Assembly: GCA_964418415.1 (NCBI GenBank)
Contig: CAYQLB010000003.1
Span: forward strand, 12,618 to 76,617
Source of the DNA: an uncultured Candidatus Peribacteria bacterium
GTDB taxonomy: Bacteria; Patescibacteriota; Gracilibacteria; Absconditabacterales; Absconditicoccaceae
Direction: 5' to 3'
DNA: 64,000 bases
Shown piece by piece: positions 1,887-23,309 of this stretch. The notes below the pieces were generated by a model, which worked only from the letters and a program-made list of their open reading frames with translations, ran no database searches and was not told where the DNA came from. A program made the translations under genes and the position numbers. Positions within the stretch are counted from its first letter, which is position 1; each line of letters starts with the position of its first letter.

Positions 1887-2283
1887 CGATGTAATGTGTC
1901 CACTATCAGGAGGAATCCGTTCTCACCCCATCACGTCATTCCCGTGCCAAGTGTTTGAAGAGGGAATCTATAGCGATATAGCTTTTTAGCATGGATTCCG
2001 GCTGCAAAACTTATCGCCGGAATGACGTCCAATAGTTTTGATATGGATTCTCACAGAGTTTATCCCGCAAAATGGGGTTCGTATAATGTATCGTAAACCA
2101 TTACCATCCATTACGGGCGGAAGCCCTCATTACATGAGCATTAGCGAATAAATTATTATTTAAAAGTATTATAGTATATATGTCAAGTCTTCCTAGCCGT
2201 TTAGGAGGGCTTTTTTTGTAAAAAAAGGGCTTTTGGAATATAATCTTTATATAGTACGACCTTTAGATTTTAGATTATATAGC

Positions 2284-4032
2284 ATGACTAATATCGAAAC
2301 ATTAAAAACTGAGGTGGATCAGGTAAAAATCGATCTGGATGCTTGTAAAGCAGAAACCTCTGAAGAAATCAAGAAATCCAAAGCGGAGGCAGCTGTTCTT
2401 AGAACCGAAGTTATAGAAAAGAAAGTAAAAGCCGCCAAAGAAGAGATCATCGCAAAGATTACGGCGCTTGAAGCCAAGACTGATGCGACCTCAAAGGCAG
2501 AAGTTATCGCATACAAGGCTGATCTTGCTACGATTGAAGAACGGTTGACAAGCATAGATGCTTCAAAAACGGAACTTGCTACGCTTCAGGCTACGGTTAC
2601 TACGCCAGAGCCTGCTATAACCGAAACCACAGATAAAAAAGATGAAACAAAAACGGATGATACCGATAAATCATGGATCAGGAAACAGCGGGATGGTGTG
2701 ACGAGCAAAGAAGAATGGAAGACAAATACCTGAGCGAATGTCGCCCGTATAGCATGAGGAATCGGGATAGTAGCATTAGGTGTTCGAGGGATCAAAAAGC
2801 TTTTTGGTATAGGTAAAGATAAAGAAAAGAAAGATAATTCATGAGACGAAAAGAATACAGAAGAAACAAAAGAAAAAAAATGAAATTCGTGGCGGAAATG
2901 GCTACTTGGTGGATGAATATTGGCGGCAGGGTGATATGGTCTCTATAATCTATTGAAATGAAAATGATTGAGTTTCGAAGATTCGCTTATCGCAGCAGAA
3001 GCTGATCTTGGAACTATTTCTGAATCAGATGAAATAAATATCGATAGATGAAAAATCAGCTATGAAGAATCAGTTAAACAAATAAAATCATATGGATTGG
3101 GTACAAAGATAGATAAATGAGGGTTGTTTAGTGCAAAAAAGATAGAAGGATTGGATATAAAATTCTCAGACTATAAACAGCTTATTCACGCTGCAAATCT
3201 TGTAAATTATATCAAACATAAATATACATGAAGATGTGAAACAGATACGCCTTTTTACACCAAATCATCTACATGAGATATTTATATCAAAATTAAAGAT
3301 TGAGAAAATAATACCAAAGAAGAAGAAATTATTAGTGGTGGTATTCGATCTACATTATCAAGTATATGCCCTGATGTTCTTAATGGCATATTTACCGATA
3401 CGAAGAATAAAGATAAATTTCTTGCTTATTTAAACAAACAAGGTGTTTGGAAAGAATGAAATGTAGTTGCTCCTGATGCTAAATGAGACAAGATACAAGA
3501 AAAAATGAATGAGGTTTGGCAAGAAATAGTCGATACACCAACCGAATTTGATCCATTATGAAAAGAAAGAGGACAAATAATTGCTACAGCAAATACTACG
3601 GATAAGACTGAGTATACGATTAAGAGTCGATGAACCCCACAACAGGAAACAGAAGTGAAAATGGAGGCTAATACTGATGGTACAATTACTTCATGAAAGA
3701 TAGATGGTTTGTCGATAACATTCACTACTGTGGAAGAATTATTAAGAACCGCAAATTTGATCAATAAATTAAAATATCAATACCATGTCGTAACACCATT
3801 ATTATTGGGACCAAATGAAGAAGCATTTTATCGAACGAGTTCATTTTGAATAGTATGATGACATCCATGAATATATGTTGATAATTCAACAACGTGGACT
3901 TTGGATGATAGAGTTATCAAAAAAGAGACATTAGAAAATATATTCCCTACGATTCTGAAAAACAAAGAAATATTTATTAAATATTTAAATGGATTGAAAG
4001 ATGAAAATGGTAAGGGATTGCGAGAAAAATAA
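2284..4032 (+). CDS. coiled-coil membrane protein (582 aa), short paralogue of the next gene
   Basis: ATG 2284 to TAA 4030, with more than 20 in-frame TGA. It has a ~110-aa heptad-rich N-terminus. A TM hairpin follows (ANVARIAGGIGIVALGV / Lys-Glu linker / SWWKWLLGGGILAAGGYGLY, with CGA/CGG read as W). The ~400-aa C-terminal domain has no motif I recognise. Confidence 0.7.
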
Positions 4033-4190
4033 TACAAAAAGTAAAAAAACCTTTTAAATACATATAAAGTATATATATCGTAATATGTCAATAAATATTC
4101 GTTATCAGACGGGTATTTTTTTGTTTTAAAAGGCACTTTCGGGTATAATAATTATAGAGTATATGACCTTTAATTTTGAGACCAAAGAGT

Positions 4191-7100
4191 ATGACTCCAA
4201 CAACAACTATTGAGACATTACAGAAAGATGTAGATTTGATAGCTACAGATTTGGCTGATCTCAAAAAATTGACCGATGAAAAACTCAAAGAGACCAAAGC
4301 TGAAGCAGCTGCAGATAAAGTAAAGACCGTTAAAGAAACAATCAATAAAAAGATTGAAGCGCTCAAAGGACTTACTGATGCAACTTCAAAAGCAGATATT
4401 ATTAAGCTCGAAACGATGCTTACGACATTGGAAGCTTCAAATAAAGAGCTTGAAACGCTCAAAACTGCTATTATGACTCCCAAGATAGATATCGATATCC
4501 CGGATACCAAAGTAGAGACGATGGACAATAGTGCAGACCTTGCTACCATCAAAACTAATATCACGGAAATTACCACATTGGCGACTACATTACAATCAGA
4601 GATAGATGCCTACAAACTAGCGAAAGCCAAAATGACGGCAGCAGAAATCACTGCCAAAGACAAAGATATCGTAGACAAAAAAGCAGCTATCGAAACCAAA
4701 AGGAAAGAAACCCAAGCGCTCATAGATAAAATCAAAGCAGCACGGAAAGCGCTCAAGATAAAAGATATGGAAGAAGGTGTACCCAAAACCGCATTAGAAA
4801 AACTTCAGACTGCAGATTTAGCAGTGCTTACTGCAGATCAGACAGCACTCGATAAAATACTGACTCCCGGAAGGACATTGTTTGAAAAAGTAGGTGATTG
4901 AGTTGGTAAAGTTCGAGGGAAAGTCAAAAACTGAGCTGAGAAAACACGAGAATGGGCAAAAGAAAATCCCAAAACCGCAATTGCTGCTACTGCAGGAATC
5001 GGATTTTTAGTTCGATGAATTTCCAGATTATTCAGGAAAAAGAAAAAAAGCGAAACAGGAGACGAGTGAGGAAAGAAAGAGAAGAAAAAAATGTCACGAC
5101 GAAAGAAAGCACTCTTACGATGATGAGGGATCTTGGGATGAATAGTTTTATTTAAAAATCGAGATAGAATAAGTAATCGGTTTAAAGGATTATTTGGTAA
5201 GAAAGAAGAAGATGCCGGAGGTGGTGCTACAGCATCTGAGACTATATCTTCTACCGAAGAAGCTGCAGAAAGCTTTGAAGTCTTAATGAAAGAAAAACCT
5301 GAATATGCAAACAAAATGAATACATTTTGAAATAATGTAAACGACTTTTATGATTCGATCTATAAATTTGATGACTGAACCATGCCTGAATGACTTACAG
5401 AATATACTCTTGGAACAGGGAAAGAAAAATATGTATGAGCAATTCCTCATGTACTCAATAATAGTTGTAAAGATTTAAATGATCTGAATAGCAAAGAATC
5501 TTTATTTAAACTTTGTGCTTATGGTAAAATAGCTGAAGTTCAAAAATGATTTGCTGATTTAATAGCAGGATGAGCTTGGAAAGTTGTAGGTGGTGTTATG
5601 TGAATGTTTGGTCTTTCATGACTTGTATCTGAAGAAAAGGTAAAGGGTGCTGTTTCTGGATTTCTTTGAACCAATGATATACCCGAAATCAATAAGGTCT
5701 TTAGAAAGATGCTTAAAGTTATGTCATATCTAAATTATGCAGAGAATTTAGTTGTAGCTCAACAAATAGAAAAAGCGATTGCCTGATGAGATAAGTTATA
5801 TAAAAAATCAGGTGATACATATGAAGAAATAGAATATCCAGCTGATAAAGAGGATGCTAAAGATCTGATAAATGATATCCAAAATTCTCCTAGTGATTAT
5901 AAACTTGGTGAAAAAGAATGTTCTGGTATAATAAGTGATATCAGAGGTAAAAAAATATATGATTTTGTGGAATATAATATCACTTCAGAGAAAATACGGG
6001 AATATAATCCCGATATCAAAGAGAGTATGAAAGATATCAATAAAGAAAGAGATGAAATAAGGAAAAAATTGGATAAGGATCCTGTTGGTACTTTAGAAAA
6101 AATGAAATGAGAAGCTGAGGATAAGATCGCTAATGGTATGTTTGAATCTATAAGAGACTTTATGCCTGCTTTGCATTTGGCAGAAAATATCGGTATAGGA
6201 CAAGATGCGAGTATCGAGAGAATGATCAAAGAAAGTGCTTGATTTAAAGATAATCTCGCAAAATATAAAGAAAAATTCGATCAATTGAAAACAGAAAAAG
6301 ATTTGAATAAGGTAAAAAAAGAGATAGATAATTACTATGCTACATTGAAAGAACTTCGTACAACCCAGAATGCTATGATAGAGACGTCTGATGAAAACGG
6401 AAATTTTATGCTGACCTTATGAAATTCTGCCAAGGATTTTTTTGTCTGAAGCGGTCAAAACATTACGTATGGGATTTCACTTATCCGGACAGGTAATGTA
6501 TGGAAGATTATTGAATGAACTGGATATGCTGTAACATGAGCGGGACCTTTTGTAATGGGACTGGGTATGTTTTTGAAATCAAAAAACATTATTTGTGCAT
6601 GAGCAAAAATGACTGTTGCTCCTGTCTATTATCCTATAAAATGGTGAGCAAAATTGTTCGGTAAAAATATCGAAGCAGAGTTTACTAATCTTTTGTGATG
6701 ACGTTTTATGAGTAGATTTTATCGTACTACTGATTCTCTTATTGATTGAATAGGAAAATGAATGTCCGTGAAAACTGCATATACTATTTTCAAATCCAAT
6801 GCAAAGGTTACAACATCAGTTGCAGAAAATTTTGCTTTCAAAGTATTATGAGCTACTGAGGATAATGCTAAATCTATTTGATCTCTTATTGAATCATGAA
6901 GATTTGATGTTGTGCAAAAAGCTCTTTCAAAAGATGTCTCTATACTCACGTGAGGTAAACGAATCAAAACTACTATTGGTATAGAGAAAACAACACTTGA
7001 AAATCTGACTGCTATCCAGAATATTTTGAAACAATGAGGAAATGCTTGAACAAACATGGAAAAATTTGGTTATGAACTCCTTGCAAAGTCCAATGTTAAT

Positions 7101-10100
7101 AATCGATCTAAAGTAAAGGATATATTATCAAGGGCTGATATAATGGATGATGTTAAATCTCTATCTTCGGTAGATGATGTAAATTTGCTTGCCAAAAATT
7201 TATGATCTTCTCTCGATAATGTTGAAGTTATTGATGATATTTTTGCTCAAAATTGTAAAAATGTAATTGCTTCTTTGGATGAACTCAAAAAATCATCTGG
7301 TACATGATTTAATGGTGTTATGAACTGATTGTTAGAAAAAATAGGAATTTCAAAAAAAGTGTTGAGTACTACAGAAATTACTGATGAAGCAAAAATAATT
7401 AGTGAACAGATGACTAAAATTTCTGGAGTTGCTGCTTTGGATGATGCAGCAAAAGCTAGTTTAAATATCGAGGTAAATGCAACGGCATATAGTCATCTTC
7501 TAGAAGGTACAGATAATGTAGATGATTTGACAAGAAAAATTATAGAAGAATGTAGTTTTGCAGATCATAAAGATTATTTTATAGATACACAAAAAATAGC
7601 TGAAGCAAAAGCATATGCACAATTTCTTATGGATAGTAGAAAAGTAGGTACAGCAATAGAATATACAAAAGACTTAACGCCGATAAGTAGTGTACTGAAT
7701 ATGGGAGATTATAATAAGTTAGCAAAACTCATCAATAAAGGAAAATCAGATGATATAGTAAAATTCTTAACAAAAAGGTTGGATAAAGAATGAGTAGAAA
7801 ATGCTTGAGAATTAGCACAAAAATTTGCCGATCAGACAAAAGGTATGCAAAATGCAGACAAAACAGAAGTTGCCAAGATAATAGGATTGAGTGAAAAAAA
7901 TACAGAGAAAGCAATCATCGCTATCACCAAGTCTCTTGCACAAGATAAAGTATTTGTTACTAGTATTTTAGCGCTTAATTGAGATGCAAAAGCAATTACT
8001 GAGGCATTAAATAAAAAATGCTGATTGATTTGAACTAATGTTACTATAACAGAAGAGTCTGAAATTGTCCAGAAGCTTGTTAATTGTGAAAAAGCTCAGG
8101 ATGTGGAAAAAACATTAGAATATACTTCCAAGGGATTAAAGCGAAGAATTGGTATTTCAGGTGTAACTGCAGCTCTTGCTATAGCAGGGGCAGTGATGTC
8201 TATCGTAGATACCGTACATGCATTCAATATGATAGAAACCACCAATAATGAAGATCTTAAAGATGTATATAGACAAAGAGGGTATGTAAGTGCATGATTT
8301 GCAGCTTTGGATACTTTAGTGGCAGTAGATGCTACCTGTGAATTGGCTTATTTAGCTTTCAGTGTAGGTCAATGAGCATTTATGTCTACAGGAGTAGGAG
8401 CAGTAATAATTATTGCAATACAAGGAGTTAGATATATGTATGATCAATATTCCTTGTGAGCGGAATTCCAAGCAAAAAATGCAGAAGATCGAAGAAAAGA
8501 ATGACTTTGATTATATTTTATATGGTATTATAGAAGTGGAGGAAAAACATCTTGAGAAAACGTGAAGGATTTTTTTGGTTCAGCTACAGATATGCCATTA
8601 GAAAAAATAGTAGAGTGATTGATAGATCAGACGTTATGAATACAGGAATGAGCAGGGACTCCAGATCAGCAGAGAGTGAAATGATATATGAAAGAATATA
8701 TGACAAAAAAATATGACAATAAATTAGATCATATGGAATCTGCTTTTTCTATGATGTCAGAAGCTTTGGAATATGCAACGTTTGCAGAATATATAAACAA
8801 TATCAAAAATTGAATAGTGAAACAAGATCAGATAACATGAGATATGGCAGATTTTATGTCAAAATATCCAGTAGCAAGCAATCAAGATAATCTTATAGCA
8901 TATTTCAATAAATACAAGGATTTCGTTAACGTACAACAGACACAGAACTTAGAGAAATATAGAGGTAATTTGCAGAAATATTCTGACCAAGAATTGACGT
9001 TTATCTATGAACAATTAGGAAGATATAATGATTATTATATACTTTCAGTAGAGTGAGTTAGTCTATTAACCGCAGTAAGAACACTATTAAAAGAAAAAAA
9101 TATAGATACATCAAAATTACAATTAAATTTTGAAGAACCACCAATCAATAGAGAACAGATAGAAAAATTTATTGCTACGTTAGGAGCAGAAGGAAATCTT
9201 CAAGAATCCATTGGAGATGCTAGTGAAGTGAAAGGAAAAATAGATCAAGTTATCATCAGTGATGAAGATCTTATAGAAAAATATTGAGCGGTACCGACAT
9301 TAGAGATATATACTTTTCTTAAGATAGCGAGAATATTTGGATATGCAGGAGAAGCTGATTTAGATGGAATAAAAATATTTCTCTCTGAAGAGAGTAAAGA
9401 TAAACAAGGGATCTACCGAGATTGAAATGAATGGAGGATAAATAATACGGCATTTTGGTCAGGATTTCGAAATAGATTTGGAAGAGATAGAGCAATATGA
9501 ACATGAGATAATGCAGTAAAAAATCTGAAAGATAATATAGATAAGATGGATTTTGATGATAAATATCTCTGAGCATTTGATTCTGCTGGTATCAAAACAA
9601 AATTAAATCAATTAAGGGAAGATATAGATAAAAAGATAGAAGTAGATAAAATGCAGAGCATTGCGCCTGTAAGCAAAAATGAGATAGTTGAATATCTCAA
9701 AAACAATAATTGAAAATATACCTTATTATCTATACAATTATTAAGCAGACTTTTGCAAAAGAATGCTGTTAAAAATTCAGGACATTATCTTTTTAAATAT
9801 GAAAACAATAAGATAATAGCTCTTCCATTAGATACACATGCAAAAGAAAAATTATTTTTTGTAGATGAAATAGATACATCATCGGAATCAAAATTTAAAT
9901 ATGAAATAATGACTGAATTGGATGCTAAGCCAATGTTCAATCAATTACAAGATCTCAGAAAAATCATTAATCTGGATGATGACGAATTCGATGTAAAACA
10001 AAATCCTGCGATAGAAAAGATTATTGCTGACAAGGAAATGGAAATCCAGATATTCATGAGTAATCTCAATAATTATGATAAACCGAAACAAAAAGAGTTA

Positions 10101-10601
10101 TATTATAAAAAATTAGAAGAGATTGAGGCATTTCATCAATCATTTTTGATTTCATTCTTATCACAATCTGCTGATAATACATTCTCGAACGATGTTGACG
10201 AGGAAAATGCAGATGAAAAAATACTCCAATCAACCAAATACGGTGAGTGGCAGAATTTCAACAGTGTTATTGTTAATAAATACAAAAAAGAATATAATGT
10301 TTTGCAATTATCTGATGAAATTTTAGCTAAATTAAATGGATTAGAATGATGATTTGATTATGTTAATTATTATTATAGAGGCATTTCATTAGCTATGTTT
10401 AAATCATATGTATTATATCAAGAAAATGGTCAATTCCACGCACAAGGAGATCAAAATCTGGAAATAAACGAGTTAGAAAAGAATTTATGAGAGATAAAAT
10501 CCTATAAGGAGTATATGAAACAATTCAAATGAAAAGAAACAACTGACGATATTGCATTAAATTTTAGTGGTAAAATACAACAAATAAAGACAATAGAATA
10601 A
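4191..10601 (+). CDS. giant polytopic membrane protein (2136 aa) with N-terminal coiled coil
   Basis: I checked codon by codon that frame 3 has no TAA/TAG from ATG 4191 to TAA 10599. Five track ORFs (4176, 7329, 8103, 8844, 9753) are all in this frame and are joined only by TGA. The N-terminus is paralogous to gene 2284. There are several hydrophobic helix clusters (about 4950-5150, 5560-5640, 6480-6640, 8150-8440). Confidence 0.75.
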
Positions 10602-10622
10602 TTTTATTCTTTATATTTTATT

Positions 10623-11573
10623 ATGTCCGGAGATCAAGAAACAACGCAAGAAAATTCAGAAGAAACCACACCAGAAGACGAGTCATCAGAGATGACGATT
10701 GAAGATACAAAAGAGCAATTGGCTAGCATGTATCTCAAATTTCTCGATGAGAAAAAATGAGGGATATTGGGTACTACAGCATGATTGGGTGTTAATCTCA
10801 ATCCGCTTCAAAAAGACGCGGTAGAATATTTGACTACGGATAAAACAGTCCCAGATAAAAAAGATTTTTTCTCAAACATAGGGAAAAACATCAAAAAGAA
10901 ATTTGTAGAAAAGTTTACCGGATGAACTATGTTGGAATATAATAAAGCAAGTCTGAATAAAATGAAAGCTCTGATTACTCAATATAAAGATGATCAGACA
11001 AAATTGCAGGAGCTTATGACACAGATAGAAGACGGTATAGATCCTACCATAGCAGCAGTAGCTGCTACTACACCAGTCGTCGCTGATGCTGTTACACCAG
11101 ATACCAAAGTGGAATATGACGACAAAACCAATAGAGAGAAGGTATTAACCCAATTAAATAAGGTAATAGAAGAAGATAAGAAGGACCCTATCAATTATCT
11201 CTGGTGAGGAAAAAAGGATCCCGAAGGCTGATTAGATTGTTCGTGATTGATTTATTATACACTAGATCAGGCATGATTGAAGACGTCACTCGATTCTAGA
11301 TCGATGTTTAATGATTTCGATACCAAGAAATTGGAGCTCAAGGAGTGAACACATGAGGTAACTACCGATGTTTCTGATATCCAGGAAGGCGATATCATCC
11401 GATGGAATAGTACAAATAAGGACTATAGCCGAAGGACATGAGCATTTTATGCAGAGAACGGAATCAATGATGTAGATATTATCGACGATGATACAGTAAA
11501 ATCAAAATTCAGTCGATTATCGTCTGAAGCTAACCAGACAACATTCCTTAATTTCGTAAATGCTATGAAATAA
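10623..11573 (+). CDS. NlpC/P60-like cell-wall peptidase (catalytic His not evident)
   Basis: ATG 10623 to TAA 11571. Motif YLWGGKKDPEGGLDCSGLIYYTLDQAGL is the NlpC/P60 Cys box, with 4 of its Gly encoded by TGA. GDII follows downstream, but I found no HVG-type His. Confidence 0.65.
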
Positions 11574-11604
11574 TATCTTTTATCTTTTTCTCCACTAATC
11601 GTCA

Positions 11605-12687
11605 ATGACAGAGTGAGGCCCAATAGAAAAGAATCTATGATTGGATAATCTCCTTCAGGGTATCACCGGATCAACATCCGAAGAGGTTTTGGCATTGAAA
11701 GAAGAAATAGCTGAAAAATATATCGAAAAACTCAAGACAGAGAAGGGGGAGTGATTATGATCTTTGATTATTGGTGAAGGTAAATCATTGAAAGATTATT
11801 TGGTATCCAAAAATATAGGAGATAAAGTACGAGATAATATAAAAGGAGTGTTCCTCTGAGGACTATTTACCGCGGTTGATCAGAAATCATTCGAAATAGA
11901 TGGAGTAAAATATAATTCTATCTTCGATTATCTCAAACCAATGAAAGAAGAATTGGATGCAGCAAACACCAAGGAAGCTTTGGAAGAGTTAAAAGATAAA
12001 ATACTGAATTGAGTGACAATAGTAGATGATGATAATCAACAAGAACAACCACAAGACACAGAAAACACTACAGATATATTGCCTATATATACAAAGTATA
12101 AATATTTGAAGGTCGGGGGTATTGTTGCTAAAGAAGATATTACATATGTTGAAGCTAATGCTGAGAATATTGTAGAACATTTACAAACAAAGGGATCATT
12201 GAGTAAGATTGAGGAAATAAAGGATGTTGATGGTAATGTTGTATTAGAGTGTAGATGAAAAACTCCATATATTCATTCCAAGGCTGCTTCAGATCTTATT
12301 TGACTCTCTTTGTTATATTACAAAAAAACATGAAAAAAATTTCTTTTGGAAAGTGCATATAGGACAATAGATCATCAAGAAGAGCTTAAAGAAAAAAATG
12401 CGGCTACATGAGTACCTACAGCAGATCCATGATATAGTTGACACAATTTATGATATTCTATAGATCTTAGTCAAGAAACAAGGTATGATGTAAAAATCGG
12501 TGGTGTTGCTTGATTAAAAAAATTAGCCGAAATGTTTGATTTTCATCCAATATCGTCAGAAGATTGGCATTTTGATTATTCAGAATTTGTAGATAAATAT
12601 TATAACGACAAAGAAGCAAGGCTTCCAGAAGCACAGAAGTTAGATGATTTATTTGAAAATGAACAGGAATATCGTCAAGCAGCCTAG
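11605..12687 (+). CDS. peptidase M15 (VanY-type D-Ala-D-Ala / LD-carboxypeptidase) with N-terminal extension
   Basis: ATG 11605 to TAG 12685. C-terminal motifs are SAYRTIDHQEEL, PGYSGHNLGYSIDL (SxHxxGxAxD) and SSEDWHFDY (ExWH). Confidence 0.8.
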
Positions 12688-12713
12688 ATATCTTTAATGA
12701 TTTTCTTTACTAC

Positions 12714-13301
12714 TCAGATCACTTTGGTTTCATCATATTTCGTTATTTCTACATTATCAAAAAATCTGTTCACGGACTCTAGATAGAGTTTACCATCTTG
12801 TTTCACTATTTTTTTCAGTTTAGGTAGATCATTGTGGATGATAAAGACATAATCATTCACATCATAGCTTGGTTGTTGTTTAATCAAGACGAGATCTCCA
12901 TCTTGGATCTTTGGTTCCATACTATTCCCTTTCGCTCTAACGAAAAAACATTTATTGACATCTTTTACTCCCAACATCGCTATCGTTGCGGGAATTTTTT
13001 CCTGGGTGTATTCATCAAGGATATGTTTTCCTTTATTTCCACATTGAGCGAATCCGTAGATAGGAAGCTGGACAATGTCATTTAAACTGTCCGTGATACT
13101 TTCTCTGATTAATCTATATCCTTGTTCATCTTTTACGAAATACCCTTTCAATACTAATTGATTTAATTTATTGAGCACGGTCTGTGGGTGACTTGCTCCG
13201 ATATTGTGGGCGATTTCTCTTAGGGTAATTCACTCCTGGTTCGTATTCTTTTTGAAGAAAGCTATCAATGCCTTTTGTACGTTATCAAGATCTTTTTGCA
13301 T
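12714..13301 (-). CDS. lexA: LexA-like repressor (wHTH + S24 peptidase)
   Basis: ATG at 13301 (MQKDLDNVQKALIAFF..), stop at 12714-12716. C-terminal S24 motifs are AKGNSMEP and LPKLKKIV. It is divergent from recA. There is one in-frame TGA. Confidence 0.8.
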
Positions 13302-13383
13302 TATACTATAATTAAAAGATTAAAAGACAGTAATGTTTTGTAATGTATAGTAATGAATTCGCTACGCTCATGTAATGTATTGT

Positions 13384-13752
13384 TTAATTTTTTGTTAGGA
13401 TTTTTTTGGCTTTAGTTATGAAATTATTGAGTTTAACTGAAAGAATATCTAAATTATGTATAAATTGGGTATATTCATATTCGGATAATAGATTCCTATC
13501 GTGTAACGTTTCTATCCAATGTTTGCTTTCCTGTAAAGATCATCTTGCAGTATAATAGAATTTTATAGAATCTAAATAATGAAACCTTCCAAATCATTCA
13601 GCAATATTTGCTCAAATACTATCAATAGCCCTTACAAATTGACTTCACAGTATCTTTTTGAGATCAAAGTTAAGTCTCTTATAGATATGTCGTGCTTTTT
13701 TTCCTAATGTACGAGCGATACTATAAATTTCCAGATCAGCGATTCATTTCAT
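13384..13752 (-). CDS. four-helix-bundle protein (TIGR02436 / 23S rRNA IVS protein family, Avd-like)
   Basis: MKGIADLEIYSIARTL..SQFVRAIDSIGANIAEGFGRFHY..YTARGSLQESKHWIETL matches the family signature (SxxSNIAEG, ARGSxxE). Five in-frame TGA. Confidence 0.75.
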
Positions 13753-14172
13753 TCTACAATTCATTACACGAAGTAAATTACAATTCATTACATCCGCGTC
13801 AGCGGATACATTACATATCCAATTTCGATGTCAGTATAATGTTTTCCTTGACAGTGTCAAATCATTTTTGACAAAATCAATCATATTTTTGACAAGCATA
13901 GAGAATGTAGTTCTCCATATAACAAAAATCTCTTGATTTTCTAAAATAATTCATTAAAATTGATTTTGTTGATGAGAAAGAACTCAAAAAAACGATTTGC
14001 TTGTCATGTACGATTGATGTCGTAATCGGTGAATCGATAGAGGAATTTGCTCGTAATGCATTGTAATGATTCCTTCGGAATGTAATGATTAGTAATGTTC
14101 ATTACGCCGTAGGCACATTACGCTGCAAGCACATTACCGTAAATTAGTTTTATACTATTATAATAAAATATC

Positions 14173-15371: not shown

Positions 15372-16682
15372 TTATACTTCGAGACTAAATTCACCTATTT
15401 TTGTTTCATCAATAGTGATAATAATGGATGCTTTTCCTGCTTGTTGTGCAAGAATAGCGATATCCATTTTACCGTTATTGATGATCTTTATATTAGAGAT
15501 GTCCGGTTTAAAAGTATCATTTGTTGAAAGTACCGTGAATGCAAATGGTAGTAGTCCTGAATATTTTTCTCATGTTTTTTTATCAGTGACTTCTATAATT
15601 AAAGAAGCCATTTCGCCGAATTTTAGTGGTGAATTAGTGACTAAATGGATAATGAGATTATTTTGTGTGAGAAAATGTTGAGCGATATCACTGAGGTCTT
15701 CCAAATTAAGTATAAGATCTTTATTGATAGATGTCTGGGGTAATATAATCGGTGTAGTTGGTAAAGTTGGTGTTGTTGGTAAAGTTGGTGTGGTTGGTAG
15801 AGTTGGTGTAGTTGGTAGAGTTGGTGTAGTTGGTAGGGTTGGTGTGGTTGGTTGAATTGGTGTAGTTGGTAGGGTTGGTGTGGTTGGTAGGTTTGGTTTA
15901 GTTGATTGAGTTGATGTAGTTCCTGTATTTTGACTACCTGTATTAGTTATTGGATGTATAGTATCTTCATCATCTTCATCAGTAGAGGTGTTTTTATTGT
16001 TATAAATATAGCATTTCACCTGTGCTGTGGTAAGGTCATCTCGACGATCAGACATTTTTCCTCTACCTACCCAAGCCATATCTCTGACAATGATTTTTTT
16101 CATAGATTTGTCGTAGTGAAGAACTTTGCCTACATGTCCGTATACTCAAAATCTACCTCAAGCATCATAGACAATCAATGCTCATTGAACTGGAGTTGTA
16201 CCTATTTTATATCAGGTTTCAGCAGCATTTTTACATCGATCTACAGCATTCCCTCACCATGTTCTTTGTTGGGTATTGTCATCGATAAATGGAAAAAATT
16301 CAGGAGAAATTCTCGCTGCTCCGTAGGTACAATATCATTTGGTGAATGTATTTTCTATATCCATACTCATATCCCATATAGAGATAATATTTCCTTGTTT
16401 GAGTGAGGTGCCTGGGTTTTTCATAGCTTCCACTAATGCTTGTGATACTTCACTACTATTGTTTCTATAGAGTTCTTCACTATATCCGGTAAGATTAGCA
16501 AAAAGTCGAGATCAAGAGATTAAGGTTAATAGTACGACCCCCATAAGTTCACCAACATGTATCAGGTGATGATGGAAATATTGATGGATATGAAAAATCT
16601 TATGCACATGTCTGTGTATGTGTTTTTTGATATGATTATGTATTCTGTGGTGAAGAGCTACGTGCTTCTTTATTTTTTTCAT
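15372..16682 (-). CDS. CHAP-domain peptidoglycan hydrolase with His-rich N-terminus and PT-repeat linker
   Basis: ATG at 16682, TAA at 15372-15374. CHAP Cys box FTKGYCTYGAARI and His box GVYGHVGKVL. Eight TPTLPT repeats. The C-terminal ~110 aa is an unknown domain. Confidence 0.85.
15751..15895 (-). repeat. 8 x 18-bp in-frame tandem repeat encoding (TPTLPT)n
   Basis: ggtgtagttggtaRRgtt units read directly. They translate on the minus strand to PTTPTL repeats. Confidence 0.9.
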
Positions 16683-16808
16683 GGCACGATAAAGGCTAAA
16701 GCGAGTAAACGTTCAAACGCATAAATGATGCAATATTTGTGTATACAGTATCATTTAGTCGCTCTATCGTTTAGTCCTTAAGTAATTATAGTCACAGAAG
16801 TCAGTTTT

Positions 16809-17085: not shown

Positions 17086-18213
17086 ATGAATAAACATATC
17101 CTCTTCGTCTTGGACTATTATCTTCCTCATAAAGGCTGATCAGAAACAGTGTTTGAAGCTATTATTTCTCGTTTACTAACAAAAGGATATACGGTATCTG
17201 TTTTGACGAGTCACTTCGATTCAGCATTGCCGCGTGAAGAAAAGAAAGAGAATTTTCATATATATAGGATCGGCAAAGGAAGAATCAGTTTTATGGTTGG
17301 GGCGTTGAGTAAAGGAATAAAAATTTTAAGAAAACATAAAGATATTGCACTTATCCATACGAGTACCTATGGAGGAGCAATCCCTGCTTCATTGCTCGGA
17401 AAATTGTTTCATAAGAGAGTGATTTTGACCGTTCATGAGGTGTTTGGGAAACTTTGGAATCAATATAAAGGATGGCGAAAAGCTTGGTTGTATAGGATAT
17501 TCGAACGTGCTGTGTTTCGATTCCCGTATAGCACGTATCATTGTGTATCGTATTATACTATGAATGCACTCAGAATGATGTACGGCATTCCAGACAAGAA
17601 GATCAGGATGATTCACAATGGCGTAGATACGGCATTCCGAAATCCCGATGAAGTTCCTGCTTTTGATGGTAAAACACGAAGAAATGAACATGGTCGAAGT
17701 AATCGTTTCGTGGTAACCTATTATGGTCATGCAGGCAAATCAAAATGACTCGATTATTTGGTTCGTGCCTTACCTGAGTTGGTTACTGTAGATGCTCAGC
17801 TCCTTTTTGTTTTCAATCTCATAGATTCCAAAAGAACACAATATATCAAAGAAAAAATAAGGAAATATCATCTCTGATCTTCTGTTCAGATATTTGATGG
17901 TTTCGAGAAAGAACAGCTCCGCACATTGATTTCAGCTTCTGATATGATCGTGGCGCCATCTATCTCTGAAGGATTCTGATCCGTACATACCGAAAGTGTT
18001 GCGATGAAAAAACCGTTATTGACAACCTATATAGCATCTATTCCAGAAGTTGTACGAGGAAATGTAAGATTTATCTCACCTACATCCAAAAGAGACATAA
18101 TCCAGGCTATCCTTGAACGTGAGGAATGGATTGATAATCCGGACTACTTCATTCCGCACAAGGAATTTTCACGAAATGAAACGGTAAAAGAACTGATTAC
18201 ACTCTATCGTTAA
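17086..18213 (+). CDS. glycosyltransferase family 4 (GT-B, Glycos_transf_1)
   Basis: MNKHILFVLDYYLPHKGG.. N-terminus. C-terminal E-x7-E region is APSISEGFGSVHTESVAMKKPLL. Track ORFs 17149 and 18004 are in one frame, joined by TGA. Confidence 0.85.
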
Positions 18214-18274
18214 AAAAAAAACTAGGTACGAGGCATAAGGAACAAGGTCCAATATGTACGTCCTAGTTTTTTGA

Positions 18275-21200
18275 TTATTTTTTGTTGCTGTTATAAATAA
18301 ACTCTTTTACATCATCTAAACTGCTGAAATATCTTTCACTAGTGAATGTATAAGATGAATATCTACCATTAATATCCTTGAAGAAATAGAAAACCTTTTT
18401 ATTCGGTGCAGTGAATGGTGATGTTTGCCATATTCCATCGATGCGCGCATTTTTCCATCGAGCTAAGATAGGTTTAGCATTCGCATATTGTGATCCTGCA
18501 GGATTATTGATATCGATGATATATTTTAATGTATCCAAGGTAGGGAAATATTTAGGCACTACGAAATTCGTCGAAGTGAACCGTTGTGTTGCGCTATCAT
18601 AGGTGATAGTGTATCTTTTACCATTAGGCGCGGTATAGACACCATTATTGATTCGATCCATAATATCTATTCCTTCTTCGCCGAATTCATCGCTTTCATA
18701 ATATTCGTCAGCGAGATCATAGAGGTATTTCAATGCTTGCCATTCTGTATCATCTTCATCGTCGATATCATCCATTTTCTCTTCGAGCATAAGCATAAGG
18801 GTATTGAAGAATTCTTCTTCTTTGTCTCCTGCATAGAGATCTCTTAATGTTTCGAAGAGATAGACAACAATAAGTTTCTCAGTGTTTGAAAGATCAGTAT
18901 CGATATCGTCATAATCATCATCTACATCATCATCTTCTTCTTTGGTGGTAACTTTGAAAGTATCTGACTTACTATCGATAGTCAGCGTGCTTTCCACGGA
19001 ATCATCATATTCATCGCTTGAGATAAGCTCTATTTTTACTGTCCATCCATTCTGTACATATCACGTAGTTCCTACAGCATTTCCGCTGATGTAGAGCATT
19101 CCTCTATTAATGATTGCAAGTACTTGTGTTCCTGTAGAAAGACCACTGATAGTAATAGTATTAGACATATACGTTTCATCAAGGTCAGCATCATCGATAT
19201 CATTGAATGAAAATGTATTTGGTGTTGTATCCAATATTCCGCTATAGATAAATGATGATGTTGTGGAATATCATGAGTTTCCAAGATTATCTGTCGCTGT
19301 GACATACCGGTAATATACTCAATTGCTGAGAGTAAGGTTAGGTATGGTAGCTTGAGTAGTTGTTGTTGTAGATCACGATCGTCTGATAATAGTGAATCCT
19401 GTAGTATCTGATACATAATATCTATATCAAGAAATTCCCACCGCATCACCAACACCTGATCGGCTGAGAACAACATTTCCACTTACACTAGCTCAACTGA
19501 GTGGACTGCTAAGTGTAGGAGAGATAACCGTAGTGTCTAGATATACAGAGAGAGATGGAAGAGTTACCGTATCTCCAGAAGTATTCTCTAGAGAAAGCTG
19601 TACGGTTTTAAGTCCATCATTTCCCGTAAGTTGTGGATTAACAATAATATGTCAGGAGATAAGTCCTCCAGTAATACTATTTACTATATCAGATCATGTG
19701 ACTAGATATTTGTATGGTTGATTAGCTCGAAGATCTATTGAAGCATATGCTTTGACATATCGGTATGGCGTAACGTAATAACGATTTGTTCCTGTCAGTA
19801 CTGCTTGTCCTGAAAGTGGTGTGGTGATCATAAACGGTAAGATTTGGCTCATACCTGTGTTTCCTGCACGATCTGTGATAATAACATATCGGGTATAATC
19901 CAAAGCATTATTCATAGTATGTATAGTATATCCTGTATTTGTTGTTGTGATAGTGTGTTGATAACTTCAGGTTACATACAAAGTATACCCAGAAATTGCT
20001 GTTTCATCGAAGCCTGTCCATGAAAACGCAATATTGTTAGTTCCGGTGATATTGAGTCCGCTCGTAGGATAATTTGCCGTAACTGATGGATTCGTCATAT
20101 CTATAGTAAAGATCATCCCCGTAGAATTATCAGCAAGATCGTAGACAGTAAATATATAGGTTCATTCTGAACTCACTATTTCCCCATCAGTAAAGTTTCC
20201 ACTATAATAGGAAATATTCATTCCACTAACTATAGCTCCAGAAATATACAAATCATTAAAATTGATAGTAATTCATGTGTTGTAGTAACCTCCACTGATG
20301 ACATTACCGGATATTAATGACCCTAATGTAGTGCCGGTAAATACAGGTTTAATTTTATCTATAGTAAAGGTTATTCCTGTGGTATTTCCTTCATTATCTT
20401 CCAAAACGAAAGTATAGGATCCATCTCAAGTAATGAGGGCATTATTAGTATATGGAGTACTGTTTAATAGAGCTCATGAAATATTAAGTCAGGTGAACGC
20501 TATCCTGATTCCGGTATTATAATATCCACCATTAGTAATAATAGTTCCTGATTGTGTTGTTCCTGTAAAGTATAATCATGGTGTTCAAAATGAGAAGAGT
20601 TTAAGTGTTCCATTGGTAGAGAAAATACATTCAAGAGATGTATTTAATATACATCAAGAATCTATTGTATTTGGTGACCATGTGTTTCCGTCGATTGATT
20701 TTAATATACTAAGATATTGTCCTATAGTTCATGATAAGACTTGATAATATATCGTTCCTGTTCCTTCATTCATAGTAAGATAGGTTGATCCAGAAATTAC
20801 CTCTATAGTATCAAAAAATGTTGTAATCAATTGTGCTGATCATACATCTCATGTTGTTGCTAATTTGATTCCTGTAGTTATTTTTGTCGGTATATATACT
20901 GTACCATCTCGGTTAGCTCCAGAAATAGTAAATGAAGTACTTCAGTGTATTTCAAAATTTGTTGCTAAACGTAGATGATCAAAATAGATAGGGAATGTTC
21001 ATCCTATAGATAAAATGTTTCATGTTAATTTTGCAGAATTTAATCCTTCAATTCGTATATCATTATTTTGTGTGTAAGTGTCATAAGTAGTATATTGAAA
21101 AGATCAGTAGGCATTAGATTCAATAATGCCATTATCTCATGAAAAATAAATTATTCTATTTCACGTGGAATTTTGCATTAATATATTCCATCATCAAATT

Positions 21201-22909
21201 CAATAAACGATAGAATTCATAATGTTGTTATTATTGCTATTATCCAAGAATATTCATTGACCGCCGTTTCATGATAATATGCTTCAAGAGATAATATTTG
21301 CACTTGATCATGTAAAGACTATTCCTTCATTATAATTGCTGTTTATGACAGAATTTATGATTTGGGTATTGTTTGAGGTGTCTAATGTTATTCAATTATC
21401 TTCATTACTTGATAAATTACATGAATCAATAATAGTTCAAGAAGAAAAAGAAAGTAAAATACCATTACCATTAAAACCAATAAGTCCATTATTATTGAAG
21501 GTTGAATACATGATATTATTACTTGTTCATGTTTCAATCACTATTCAGACTCTACTGTTATATGTACTAGTAGAATGAGTGATGGTATTGTAATCACTAT
21601 ATGACATATATACTCCATGTCCCATATTTCCTGAAATTATTGCTCAGCTTATCGTATTATCAGATGAATTGGAAGTGAATACGATTCCATTTTTGGAATT
21701 GTTACTGATGTTTATAGATGTGAAGATATTGTCCATTGAATCATCAAGATATAATCATCCTTCATTGCTGTTTGAGACGATAATCATTCATGTATTGTTG
21801 TTTGAGTTATAGAAATGTACTCATGCATAATAATTTCCGTAGACATAGATTCACATCAAATTATTACTTGAAGAATTGTTGAAATATACTCACATAGCAT
21901 TTGCACTATTATTGGCAGTGATATCAATAAATGTATTATTGTTGGAATTATACGTAGATACATTGTGGTCTGTGTTGTTATAGGAATCTACATTAGTGAA
22001 TGAACTATTACTTATTCATTGTAAGGATACCCCTTTTCATATGTTTGATGAAATATCTATATCAAGAAAATTGTTATAGGATCATGTTAATAGTGATACT
22101 CCATGGGTATTATTGTTGCTATTTATACCACTAAATACGCTGTAGTTTATATTGTTAAATGCAATTCCATATACACTATTTTGATATGTTTGTACATTAT
22201 TCATGAAAATGTTGCTTACATTAAGACCCACTATTCCATTTGAATTATTGTGGAGTTGTGTATTTATAATATCCATATAAGATACTCCAGAAATGAGAAT
22301 GCCATATGCATTATTTGATCATGTCGTATTTTTATACGCTTGGAAATCTCTTACGGTTGTATTCATGCCGCCATCGAGGTAGATTCAGAAATGTCATTCG
22401 TTGTTCCCGTCTACTCTTATTTTTTCAATAATGATATGTTTGTTTCCATTACCTTTGATGATGGCTGGATTGGTCGTATTACCTGAAAGTGTGACTATTC
22501 CCGAACTAATCAATGCTACACAATCGTTGAGTGTAATCGGAGCTGTTACATCATAAATGTCAGAATCTATCACATAGATAGTGTTTGCTACGGTTGAAGT
22601 GGGAATCGTTCATGTGAATTCTACTGTCATTCATCCGTTCAAGCATGAACCAGAATTGTATCCTGTCCAATGCTGTGTATATGCGGTGTTTTCATCACCG
22701 CTTCCATAGAGCGCTCGGATGATATCATCATCAGTCGGTGCATTATCCCAAAATAATCAGCTGAGATAATTGGAATTATCTCGTGTGATAGTTCCTACCG
22801 TCCGTGTTGCTGCATTCGCGAAGAATGCATAGATTCACAAGAAAATCCCCATAGCGATAAAGAGGATGCTCATGAATTTTGAAACGGTTGATTGTTGTGT
22901 GTGTTCCAT
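18275..22909 (-). CDS. giant surface protein (1544 aa): signal peptide, Asn-rich parallel beta-helix repeats, Fn3/Ig-like modules, acidic tract, C-terminal domain
   Basis: ATG at 22909 (MEHTQQSTVSKFMSILFIAMGIFLGIYAFFANA). There are ~20 repeats of the type NNxxNGIxxxxSxNNxI (pectate-lyase/NosD-like). Fn3 signatures are VVLSWSGVGDAVGISGYRYYV and GVYYWYVTATDNLGNSG. An acidic run EEDDDVDDDYDDIDTD is present. Track ORFs 18275, 19694, 22082 and 22835 share the frame. I checked 18995-19500 codon by codon. Confidence 0.8.
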
Positions 22910-22949
22910 GATATGGTTGAAATGATAAATGATAATTTGGGCTACGCCC

Positions 22950-23083
22950 GTAATGAGACTTTGTCGGTAATGTGTCCTATCGGACGTAATGAATTGTAAT
23001 AGACCTTGAGTCGTAATTGGTAATTGATTACGCGACCAAAGGGAGCAAATTACGCGAAGCTCATTACATCGAAGATTTGTTAC
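22950..23083. repeat. GTAATG...CATTAC mini-hairpin array in a divergent promoter region
   Basis: GTAAT(G/A/T) at 22950, 22967, 22986, 22996, 23013 and 23020. Orientation then switches to (C/A)ATTAC at 23027, 23048 and 23062. The spacers are small palindromes (gac ttt gtc, gtcc tatc ggac). Confidence 0.8.
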
Positions 23084-23309
23084 ACGAACGCAGTGAGTCA
23101 TATACTATTATATACGCAGAATTGAAAATTGCGAAATGTGTCCTATTCTGATATATATTCAACTTGCTTTTTTTATAAAAAGTTATGAAATATGTTAACA
23201 TACAAAACCATTGAAACGTCGAGGGAAAAACGTATTTACAATACAATACCATGTATGATGTGAAATACATAGTATAAAATATTTTTTTAGCATATGTAGT
23301 GATATTATT

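Follow-up and report, generated by a model that had tools for sequence, protein, structure and literature searches.

What does a giant protein that resembles nothing in the databases have to do with the cell wall peptidases encoded immediately downstream of it? The question is raised by four co-directional genes, g1 to g4, which lie in a 64,000-nucleotide (nt) stretch of DNA, called the window below, from an uncultured Candidatus Peribacteria bacterium that GTDB places in the Absconditicoccaceae (assembly GCA_964418415.1, contig CAYQLB010000003.1, positions 12,618 to 76,617). The giant is the product of g2; g1 encodes a smaller relative, and g3 and g4 encode peptidase-related proteins (Table 1). 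Comparison with related loci supported the view that these genes belong to a lineage-specific, vertically inherited cassette, in which the giant appears to be functionally tied, through an adaptor domain, to a single peptidase that has no signal peptide and whose enzyme head is exchanged. Going further, we tentatively propose that the cassette may be a membrane platform, characteristic of SR1 and its close relatives, which docks and delivers one interchangeable peptidoglycan peptidase, with the wall of a prey or host cell as the favoured target. How SR1/Absconditabacteria, like other ultra-small epibionts, breach or remodel cell walls is little understood, and since these organisms are barely cultivable, hypotheses derived from genomes are the main route to an answer.

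Gene calls made with translation table 11 between positions 2284 and 12687 yielded fragments only, the longest of 241 amino acids (aa). Reading TGA as a sense codon raised the long open reading frame (ORF) content of the window from 42 kb to 108 kb, and also opened a frame of 2148 codons at 4158 to 10601. The large ORFs contain 242 TGA codons versus 48 TGG codons. TGA codons sit at invariant glycines of RecA, which indicates that the organism uses code 25 (TGA = Gly) and led us to rule out code 4 (TGA = Trp). SR1/Absconditabacteria and Gracilibacteria use code 25. An earlier note, made from the sequence of this stretch alone, had described ORFs of 582 and 2136 aa separated from their neighbours by gaps of 20 to 160 nt; the coordinates and sizes were reproduced exactly once TGA was taken as sense, and the gaps under code 25 measured 158 nt (g1/g2), 21 nt (g2/g3) and 31 nt (g3/g4). 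Its title counted five genes, but the gene models give four, as did its own text.

The same codon affects what is found in public databases. The public copies P0001 to P0003 and P0005 to P0010 of g2 homologues are mostly translated with TGA as Trp, and such copies contain 2.6 to 4.6% Trp, as opposed to 0.9% in the correctly translated copy P0004. P0001 scores as "97% identical" to g2, in which 68 of 2136 codons (3.2%) are TGA, and the mismatch is probably due to Trp mistranslation alone. With database copies mostly mistranslated, TGA having been read as Trp or stop, the family is hidden from routine searches, and any profile or structure built from such copies will be distorted by false Trp. 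A match of P0008 to the glycine-zipper family DUF883_C was discounted because translation of TGA as Trp creates an ENPW-like motif.

Homologues of the giant were obtained in two ways. A word-index search returned 10 homologue clusters, one of them named SR1, and an exhaustive HMMER search, in which the C-terminal region of the giant served as the profile, recovered 189 representatives at 50% identity (E <= 1e-3), 58 of which had E <= 1e-30. By length they form two classes, of about 1700 to 2050 aa and about 1360 to 1500 aa, and those that carry a name are labelled "hypothetical protein", with only SR1 or Candidatus Gracilibacteria as source names. In every locus with enough flanking sequence, about 20 in all, the gene order was sufS (a SufS-like class-V aminotransferase), g1 where present, the giant, one peptidase, convergent lexA and recA, and the gap between giant and peptidase was 21 to 35 nt. 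This order was counted in the window and in loci L001, L002, L004 to L008, L012, L013, L015 to L017, L019 and L020; in L008, which is more distant, sufS, g1, the giant and an M23 peptidase are kept and the downstream genes differ. Synteny across relatives, the loss of which the earlier note had named as a reason to abandon its reading, is therefore conserved. The gene g1 was present in some relatives only and is an accessory component. One further, very distant locus, L022, was placed outside the cassette, since it lacks a peptidase and is read with the standard code.

The peptidases that follow the giant have a common layout, as seen in an alignment of 17 proteins: an acidic N-terminus, a conserved adaptor of about 140 aa, a linker and a catalytic domain. 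The adaptor, for which no Pfam match was found, occurs as two related subtypes, A (TIEDTK...GLGVNLNP...EYLTT) and B (LKxEIAxKYI...LKDYLVS), and is joined to catalytic domains of four folds, M23, NlpC/P60 (here P60), VanY and M15_4, in the combinations A-M23, A-P60, A-VanY, A-M15_4, B-VanY and B-M23. No signal peptide was found in any of the 17, whose first 30 residues carry a net charge of -3 to -12, and the maximum hydrophobicity within the first 45 residues was at most 0.65; membrane and secreted proteins of the window, taken as controls, reached at least 2.3. The last residue is Ala in 13 of the 17 (QAA, LAA, MAA, MVA, TMA, ALA and others), including members with each of the four folds; a naive binomial calculation, which ignores relatedness, gives P ~ 1e-12. 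This ending could be a degron of the ssrA/Prc-like kind or a targeting signal. The truncated product of g3 ends in FLNFVNAMK, which is similar to the Ala tails, and a 404-aa protein encoded after the giant of a distant variant locus, L023, ends in FTMA.

The connection between adaptor and giant comes from three loci in which the giant is split into two ORFs, L016 (751-8925), L019 (1544-8922) and L020 (1025-8973). The first ORF, of about 1050 to 1270 aa, comprises the head, hairpin and middle region of the giant, and the second, of about 1400 to 1440 aa, comprises its membrane cluster and C-terminal region. At its start, the second ORF has a stretch that shares 30 to 40% identity with the adaptor of g4 (E down to 4e-7). 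An adaptor hidden inside the fused giants was also sought and rejected (hhalign probability 0.3%). Since the adaptor is carried by the split second halves and is absent from the fused giants, Rosetta-stone logic suggests that it does non-covalently what fusion does covalently. Its presence on the peptidases makes it most likely that these, too, dock on the giant, and that docking is what the adaptor serves for. The second ORF also ends in a g1-like domain (E = 1e-9), and there is no separate g1 gene at any of the three loci, suggesting that the g1 domain is a movable accessory of the system. A g1-like domain was looked for at the end of the fused giants as well, and was not found there.

The catalytic part of the peptidase, in turn, is readily replaced. 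The tree of the giant shows at least six switches of catalytic type, and the fold differs between giants that are 55 to 88% identical. The window holds direct evidence of such a replacement in the g3/g4 pair. Its closest relative with available DNA is L012, in which a giant 88% identical to g2 is followed by a single A-VanY gene. In a BLASTN comparison with L012, positions 10402 to 11072 of the window matched at 89% and positions 12133 to 12890 at 78%, with no match between them; the intervening window-specific segment holds the P60 fragment, the g3 stop, a spacer and the type-B adaptor. The breakpoints of this replacement lie in the linkers between adaptor and catalytic domain, which points to cassette exchange by recombination and accounts for g3 being a stump. 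The P60 part of g3 is 72% identical to L015 up to RRTG and unrelated beyond, and L015 belongs to a different clade.

It had been proposed that g3 and g4 encode two murein peptidases of different specificity, and this held for g4 only. The g4 product matched Pfam VanY (E = 2.5e-7, 31 bits against a cut-off of 25) and has both zinc motifs, H-x6-D (SGHNLGYSID, aa 278-287) and E-x-x-H with the second zinc His (EDWH, aa 319-322); the latter is kept in L007 and L020, and L012 has EDRH. It is predicted to be an intact VanY/M15 peptidase, and had no sequence relative in the PDB at E <= 0.1. The g3 product matched Pfam NLPC_P60 (E = 1.3e-7, 32 bits against a cut-off of 23) and retains the catalytic Cys (GGLDCSGL, aa 202-209), and its similarity to full-length orthologues ends at aa 275 (nt 11447). 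The P60 orthologues of L001, L015 and L019 carry (R/H/C)IHH(I/V)AF...(E/Q)S(N/S)G. This His-bearing half (HIHHVAF...ESNG) was absent from g3 in all frames, so that rescue by a frameshift was rejected, and no His follows aa 275. With that half missing, g3 is almost certainly catalytically dead. The closest sequence matches of its P60 part in both the PDB and NCBIfam were to RipC. Both peptidase domains, P60 and VanY, are ordinary members of known families.

The two large proteins are not. From its N-terminus, the giant consists of a head, a hydrophobic hairpin, a helical middle region of about 1000 aa, a cluster of three transmembrane segments and a C-terminal region of about 720 aa. The g1 product has a head (aa 1 to about 95), Gly-rich hydrophobic stretches at aa 154-167 and 206-224, and two tandem domains of about 150 aa, marked by KIEGLDIKF at aa 286 and KIDGLSITF at aa 472 (internal repeat E = 1e-10). 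BLAST aligned g1 and g2 at 39% identity across 140 aa, and hhalign aligned the two family profiles with a probability of 99.7% (E = 2.6e-27, 94 columns, 52% identity). The description of g2 as a giant paralogue of g1 is accordingly correct for the helical N-terminal head of about 95 aa, but not for the rest of either protein. That g2 is a membrane protein was borne out by the conservation of its hydrophobic segments: aa 261-281 are conserved as hydrophobic, with the first hairpin segment hydrophobic in 9 of 10 homologues and aa 307-321 weakly so, and the three segments within aa 1318-1414 are hydrophobic in 7 to 9 of 10 correctly translated homologues.

In line with the earlier note, which had assigned the two large proteins to no known secretion, phage or conjugation family, searches of Pfam, NCBIfam, PHROGs, PADLOC and the PDB gave no such family for either protein. 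Pfam gave no match for g1, g2 or a profile of ten giant homologues, and a PDB sequence search with that profile returned nothing. The only NCBIfam match of the giant and g1 was to PspA, with 16 bits against a cut-off of 243; PHROGs had no match for either protein, and the only PADLOC match was to LeoBC (21 bits) and fell on a hydrophobic hairpin. When the giant was run by TBLASTN, neither the 50,697 phage records nor the 72,556 plasmids gave a match, and nothing was found on IMG/VR contigs. AlphaFold models were made of the correctly translated homologue P0004 in two halves and were mostly helical, with a predicted local distance difference test (pLDDT) score of 60 and a predicted template modelling (pTM) score of 0.41 for the N-terminal half, and 62 and 0.34 for the C-terminal half. 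Foldseek comparison of both halves with the PDB and with BFVD gave no match below E = 0.01, the best BFVD match of the giant having E = 0.037 and a TM-score of 0.09. Neither the profile searches nor Foldseek placed the giant in a known housekeeping family.

Table 1. Positions in the window of the cassette genes, their domains and the adjoining features
Feature	Position	Strand	Basis
Structured non-coding stretch 3' of sufS, ~330 nt	1890-2215	+	Fold z-score -3.27; upstream boundary of the cluster
Strong intrinsic terminator ending the non-coding stretch	2185-2212	+	Terminator scan
Promoter-like site of g1, TTGTAA-17-TATAAT, then ~40-nt leader	2216-2244	+	Homologous to g2 upstream region
g1, 582 aa	2284-4032	+	Code-25 ORF
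T-run and TATAAT before g2, duplicated copy of g1 promoter/leader	4085-4152	+	Alignment
g2 (giant), 2136 aa, 68 TGA-Gly codons	4191-10601	+	Code-25 ORF
g2 head domain, aa 1-95, paralogous to g1 head	4191-4475	+	hhalign, BLAST
g2 Gly-rich hydrophobic hairpin, aa 262-274 and 307-321, with Lys-rich loop between	4974-5153	+	Homologue hydrophobicity
g2 cluster of three hydrophobic segments, aa 1320-1339, 1370-1390 and 1395-1413	8148-8429	+	Homologue hydrophobicity
g3, 316 aa	10623-11573	+	Code-25 ORF
g3 type-A adaptor, aa 1-143 (acidic N-terminus, TIEDTK, GLGVNLNP)	10623-11051	+	Alignments
Window-specific segment relative to L012, 1060 nt	11073-12132	+	Replaces ~93-nt L012 linker
g3 truncated NlpC/P60 domain	11148-11447	+	Pfam; TBLASTN of full-length orthologue stops at 11441
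g4, 360 aa	11605-12687	+	Code-25 ORF
g4 type-B adaptor, aa 1-140	11605-12024	+	56% identical to N-terminus of L002 M23 peptidase
g4 VanY/M15 (LAS-type) catalytic domain, predicted	12271-12594	+	Pfam VanY; orthologous to L012 VanY domain
g4 C-terminal tail EYRQAA and stop	12667-12687	+	Ala-ending tail in 13 of 17 adaptor-peptidases
lexA, downstream boundary	12684-13301	-	Pfam Peptidase_S24 and LexA_DNA_bind; stop overlaps g4 stop (CTAG)

In the proposed platform, the adaptor of the peptidase would bind the giant from the cytoplasm, in its N-terminal or middle part, the docked adaptor taking the place of the covalent link in the fused giants, and the three-segment membrane cluster and C-terminal region of the giant would then pass the catalytic domain to the wall or present it there. 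The g1 protein would pair with the giant via their common head domain, its tandem C-terminal domains adding an accessory and probably external part. In the window, the working enzyme would be g4, with g3 a dead remnant of cassette exchange, and it would act on the wall of the prey or host at the contact site. Many giant membrane proteins are encoded by Vampirococcus and Absconditicoccus, both of them epibiotic predators (PMC8080830; PMC12428579). We favour the wall of a prey or host cell as the target because the enzyme head turns over fast among close relatives, because cultured relatives are epibiotic predators, and because wall hydrolases from elsewhere in this genome have ordinary N-terminal anchors, as in the CHAP protein at 15372-16754. 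The dedicated envelope machine described in the earlier note thus survives in part: the giant and the wall peptidases are linked by their adjacency at about 20 loci and by a common adaptor, and library searches with the giant were all negative, while its role in prey contact is less secure, own-wall remodelling fitting the evidence nearly as well.

Several points weigh against this proposal. The support is all comparative genomics, and the cassette contains no ATPase, other energy source or known translocon component. The Lys-rich hairpin loop and the short hydrophobic segments leave the in/out topology of the giant ambiguous, and the moderate confidence of the AlphaFold models makes the negative fold searches weaker than they look. 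About half of the peptidases (L004/L013, L005, L014, L016, L017, L019 and L020) have an Ala/Val/Gly-rich hydrophobic linker between adaptor and catalytic domain, with Kyte-Doolittle (KD) values over 15 residues of up to 2.5. This linker might hold the peptidase in the membrane from within the chain, or thread through the partner; it could also be an ordinary internal signal-anchor, in which case a special export route would be unnecessary. Finally, single copy, vertical inheritance and a core-gene setting suit a housekeeping role equally well, and M23, P60 and M15 enzymes also serve the growth of bacteria's own walls, as do MepM, MepS and MepK of Escherichia coli.

A housekeeping explanation would keep the docking and make the giant and g1 a membrane scaffold that positions and activates the cell's own wall endopeptidase during growth or daughter-cell separation, in analogy to FtsEX and its partners PcsB, CwlO, RipC and EnvC. 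We consider it somewhat less likely than action on a prey wall, and much at the locus agrees with it: the genes are core, single-copy and syntenic among sufS, lexA and recA, with a Mur ligase nearby, in all relatives; each locus has exactly one peptidase, with no immunity gene after it; and all four folds cleave wall peptide bonds, as growth and separation hydrolases do. The hydrolases governed by FtsEX likewise come one per system and join a helical, non-catalytic N-terminal docking region to a catalytic fold that varies between lineages (CHAP, NlpC/P60, M23-like), and the closest match of the g3 P60 part, RipC, is itself among them. SR1 predators divide in stacks or pairs, and separation would need control (PMC12428579). 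The differences are nevertheless considerable. Neither ABC_tran nor FtsX, nor any other FtsE/FtsX-like domain, was found in g1, g2 or their families, and the membrane partner of 1700 to 2150 aa has no detectable fold relative. FtsEX hydrolases have signal peptides, dock outside the membrane and keep their fold over short distances, whereas the 17 cassette peptidases are acidic and signal-less, would dock in the cytoplasm, and change fold between giants 55 to 88% identical; further wall hydrolases of the genome, such as the CHAP protein, by contrast have the N-terminal anchors mentioned above. A similar balance applies to MepS (P60), MepM (M23) and MepK (M15), which show that the same three superfamilies are interchangeable on peptide cross-links. 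In that system, which is under NlpI-Prc control, the level of the dangerous enzyme is set through its C-terminus, and the Ala tail of the cassette peptidases resembles an apolar C-terminal degron of that kind; the Mep enzymes, however, are Sec/Lol-exported lipoproteins or periplasmic proteins without adaptor or giant partner.

The other explanations fared less well. Signal-less wall peptidases encoded beside membrane proteins whose hairpins are Gly-rich and whose loops carry much charge recall a holin-endolysin or type 10 system, in which an adaptor-held cytoplasmic peptidase would be freed when the hairpins of the giant and g1 permeabilize the membrane, with lysis or cargo release as the outcome; in the Serratia ChiW/ChiX system, the signal-less M15-type peptidase ChiX is likewise encoded beside a membrane protein that it needs to reach the wall, and the locus here adjoins lexA and recA. 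Such a release module is improbable here, since holins are small (under 150 aa) and the membrane partners have 582 and 2136 aa, the giants of 1700 to 2150 residues having large conserved soluble regions, with no small transmembrane ORF between the genes. There is no phage context and no SOS box upstream of g1 or g2, and altruistic lysis would be an unlikely function for a fixed core gene of a reduced genome. No adaptor domain is known from holin-endolysin or type 10 systems. It is more improbable still that no dedicated machine exists, the peptidases being ordinary type-II anchored or cytoplasmic muropeptide-recycling enzymes and the giant an unrelated neighbour. The hydrophobic linker would serve as an internal anchor in such a case, but it is absent from g4, L012, L001 and L015. 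The presence of the adaptor on split second halves and its absence from fused giants are hard to explain without physical coupling, and the order and 21 to 35 nt gap are fixed over deep divergence, L008 included. Close to refuted is the idea of a degenerate prophage, tailocin or conjugative remnant, in which the giant would resemble a tape-measure protein and the peptidase would be a tail-associated lysin. Tape-measure proteins are indeed very long and helical with hydrophobic, Gly-rich segments, tail lysins use M23, P60 and M15 domains, and the catalytic domains of g3 and g4 weakly match PHROG minor tail, tape-measure and endolysin families. The giant and g1, however, had no PHROG match, and no BFVD, phage, plasmid or IMG/VR match was obtained; the giant thus has neither sequence nor structural similarity to tape-measure proteins. 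The cassette peptidase is a separate protein, no other virion, phage or conjugation genes occur at the locus, and its chromosomal position among core genes is fixed across the lineage.

Signal-less enzymes with a constant N-terminal region are also found among type VIIb LXG toxins, in which a helical trafficking domain is followed by a recombining C-terminal enzyme; there too, the boundary between the domains is where exchange happens, and fragments remain. The cassette differs in that no LXG or WXG100 domain was found in the adaptor and no EssC/FtsK-type ATPase at the roughly 20 loci, each locus has one peptidase instead of an array, and the payloads are wall peptidases only. Polymorphic toxins share with it the constant N-terminal region and exchanged enzyme domains (one adaptor, four folds and at least six switches), but the cassette peptidase is directly followed or overlapped by convergent lexA, with no immunity gene 3' of it. 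The giant, g1, the adaptor and their combination could be assigned to no known kind of system, and no description of the cassette was found in the searchable literature. The boldest extension, which we regard as unlikely, is that candidate-phyla bacteria with code 25 have here a hitherto unknown kind of protein-delivery apparatus. It would be a minimal "one-effector secretion system" behind epibiotic predation, in which the giant recruits a signal-less effector by cytoplasmic docking and passes it into the envelope of attached prey, the head being exchanged by recombination as prey or defences change.

Whichever target applies, the cassette offers a defined docking module, a defined partner and a set of enzyme-head swaps made by nature. 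If binding of the adaptor to the giant and export of the enzyme were both confirmed, a folded enzyme would be crossing a membrane without a recognizable translocon, and the adaptor would be a portable targeting tag. If the role is housekeeping, it would show that autolysins in this lineage are possibly controlled without the usual regulators.

The flanks of the cassette are core genes: sufS upstream, and downstream the convergent lexA, a 23S intervening sequence protein (IVP)-like gene, recA, the CHAP protein and a GT4 glycosyltransferase. The four genes had been described as one operon behind a repeat-rich promoter region at 1887-2283. That region is not repeat-rich, and consists instead of a structured stretch, a terminator and a promoter-like site. 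The stretch is GC-richer and folds better than all of its shuffles; no Rfam family matched it, and it is possible that it is an unannotated small RNA or a structured 3' untranslated region of sufS. The 130 nt 5' of g1 and of g2 were found to be homologous, with a T-run, TATAAT, a GACCTTTA leader and ATGAC in both. Their local alignment score was 47, as compared with 17.3 +/- 2.7 (maximum 35) for shuffles and at most 27 in comparison with other intergenic regions, suggesting that the duplication behind the paralogues brought the promoter along. Since g2 owns a copy of the g1 promoter and leader, there are probably two co-regulated transcription units, g1 and g2-g3-g4, rather than a single operon.

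At the downstream end, the convergent lexA was verified as the boundary. The stops of peptidase and lexA overlap in a 4-nt palindrome (CTAG or TTAA) in the window (12684-12687, CTAG) and in L012, L017, L019 and L020. The overlap leaves no space for terminators between the two genes, so that transcription from both sides must collide. No canonical LexA box was found upstream of g1 or g2, and SOS regulation was rejected. The cassette shares clusters of GTAATG with the lexA and recA promoters. These clusters are not conserved at related loci, which suggests a genome-specific repeat or regulator array rather than a conserved SOS box. In both orientations (GTAATG/CATTAC), 68 copies were observed and about 44 expected, and the clusters at 2099-2133, 13330-13377, 13762-13814, 14053-14137 and 22950-22991 lie 5' of g1, lexA, the IVP-like gene, recA and a beta-helix giant. 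The recA cluster contains the palindrome GTAATGTTCATTAC, and the lexA cluster has a phasing of about 10 to 11 nt.

Several neighbouring genes and variant loci were also recorded. The IVP-like gene (13384-13899, minus strand) belongs to the "23S rRNA intervening sequence protein" family of four-helix bundles, and also lies between lexA and recA in L004, L012, L013 and L015. The CHAP-domain wall hydrolase (15372-16754, minus strand) keeps its position in related loci. Its N-terminus, HHRIHNHIKKHIHRHVHKIFHIHQYFHHH, is unusual in being His-rich, and it also has a membrane anchor and a tract of tandem PTTPTL repeats. A second giant ORF (18275-23101, minus strand; 1608 aa under code 25) is made up of Asn/Ser/Gly-rich repeat units; as the syntenic genes of L001 and L002 carry Pfam Beta_helix, its product is likely a surface beta-helix protein, unrelated to g2. 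In L008, an ORF of 76 aa at 18058-18288 (minus strand), directly downstream of the M23 peptidase, consists almost wholly of the heptad MSYELG(V/I), repeated about nine times. The distant variant in L023 (99-17584) has a 2044-aa giant. Before it lies a gene for a 1439-aa protein, part of which is g1-like, and after it come the signal-less 404-aa protein, in which no catalytic domain was recognizable, and more large unknown ORFs; the locus may hold an enlarged form of the system that carries another payload.

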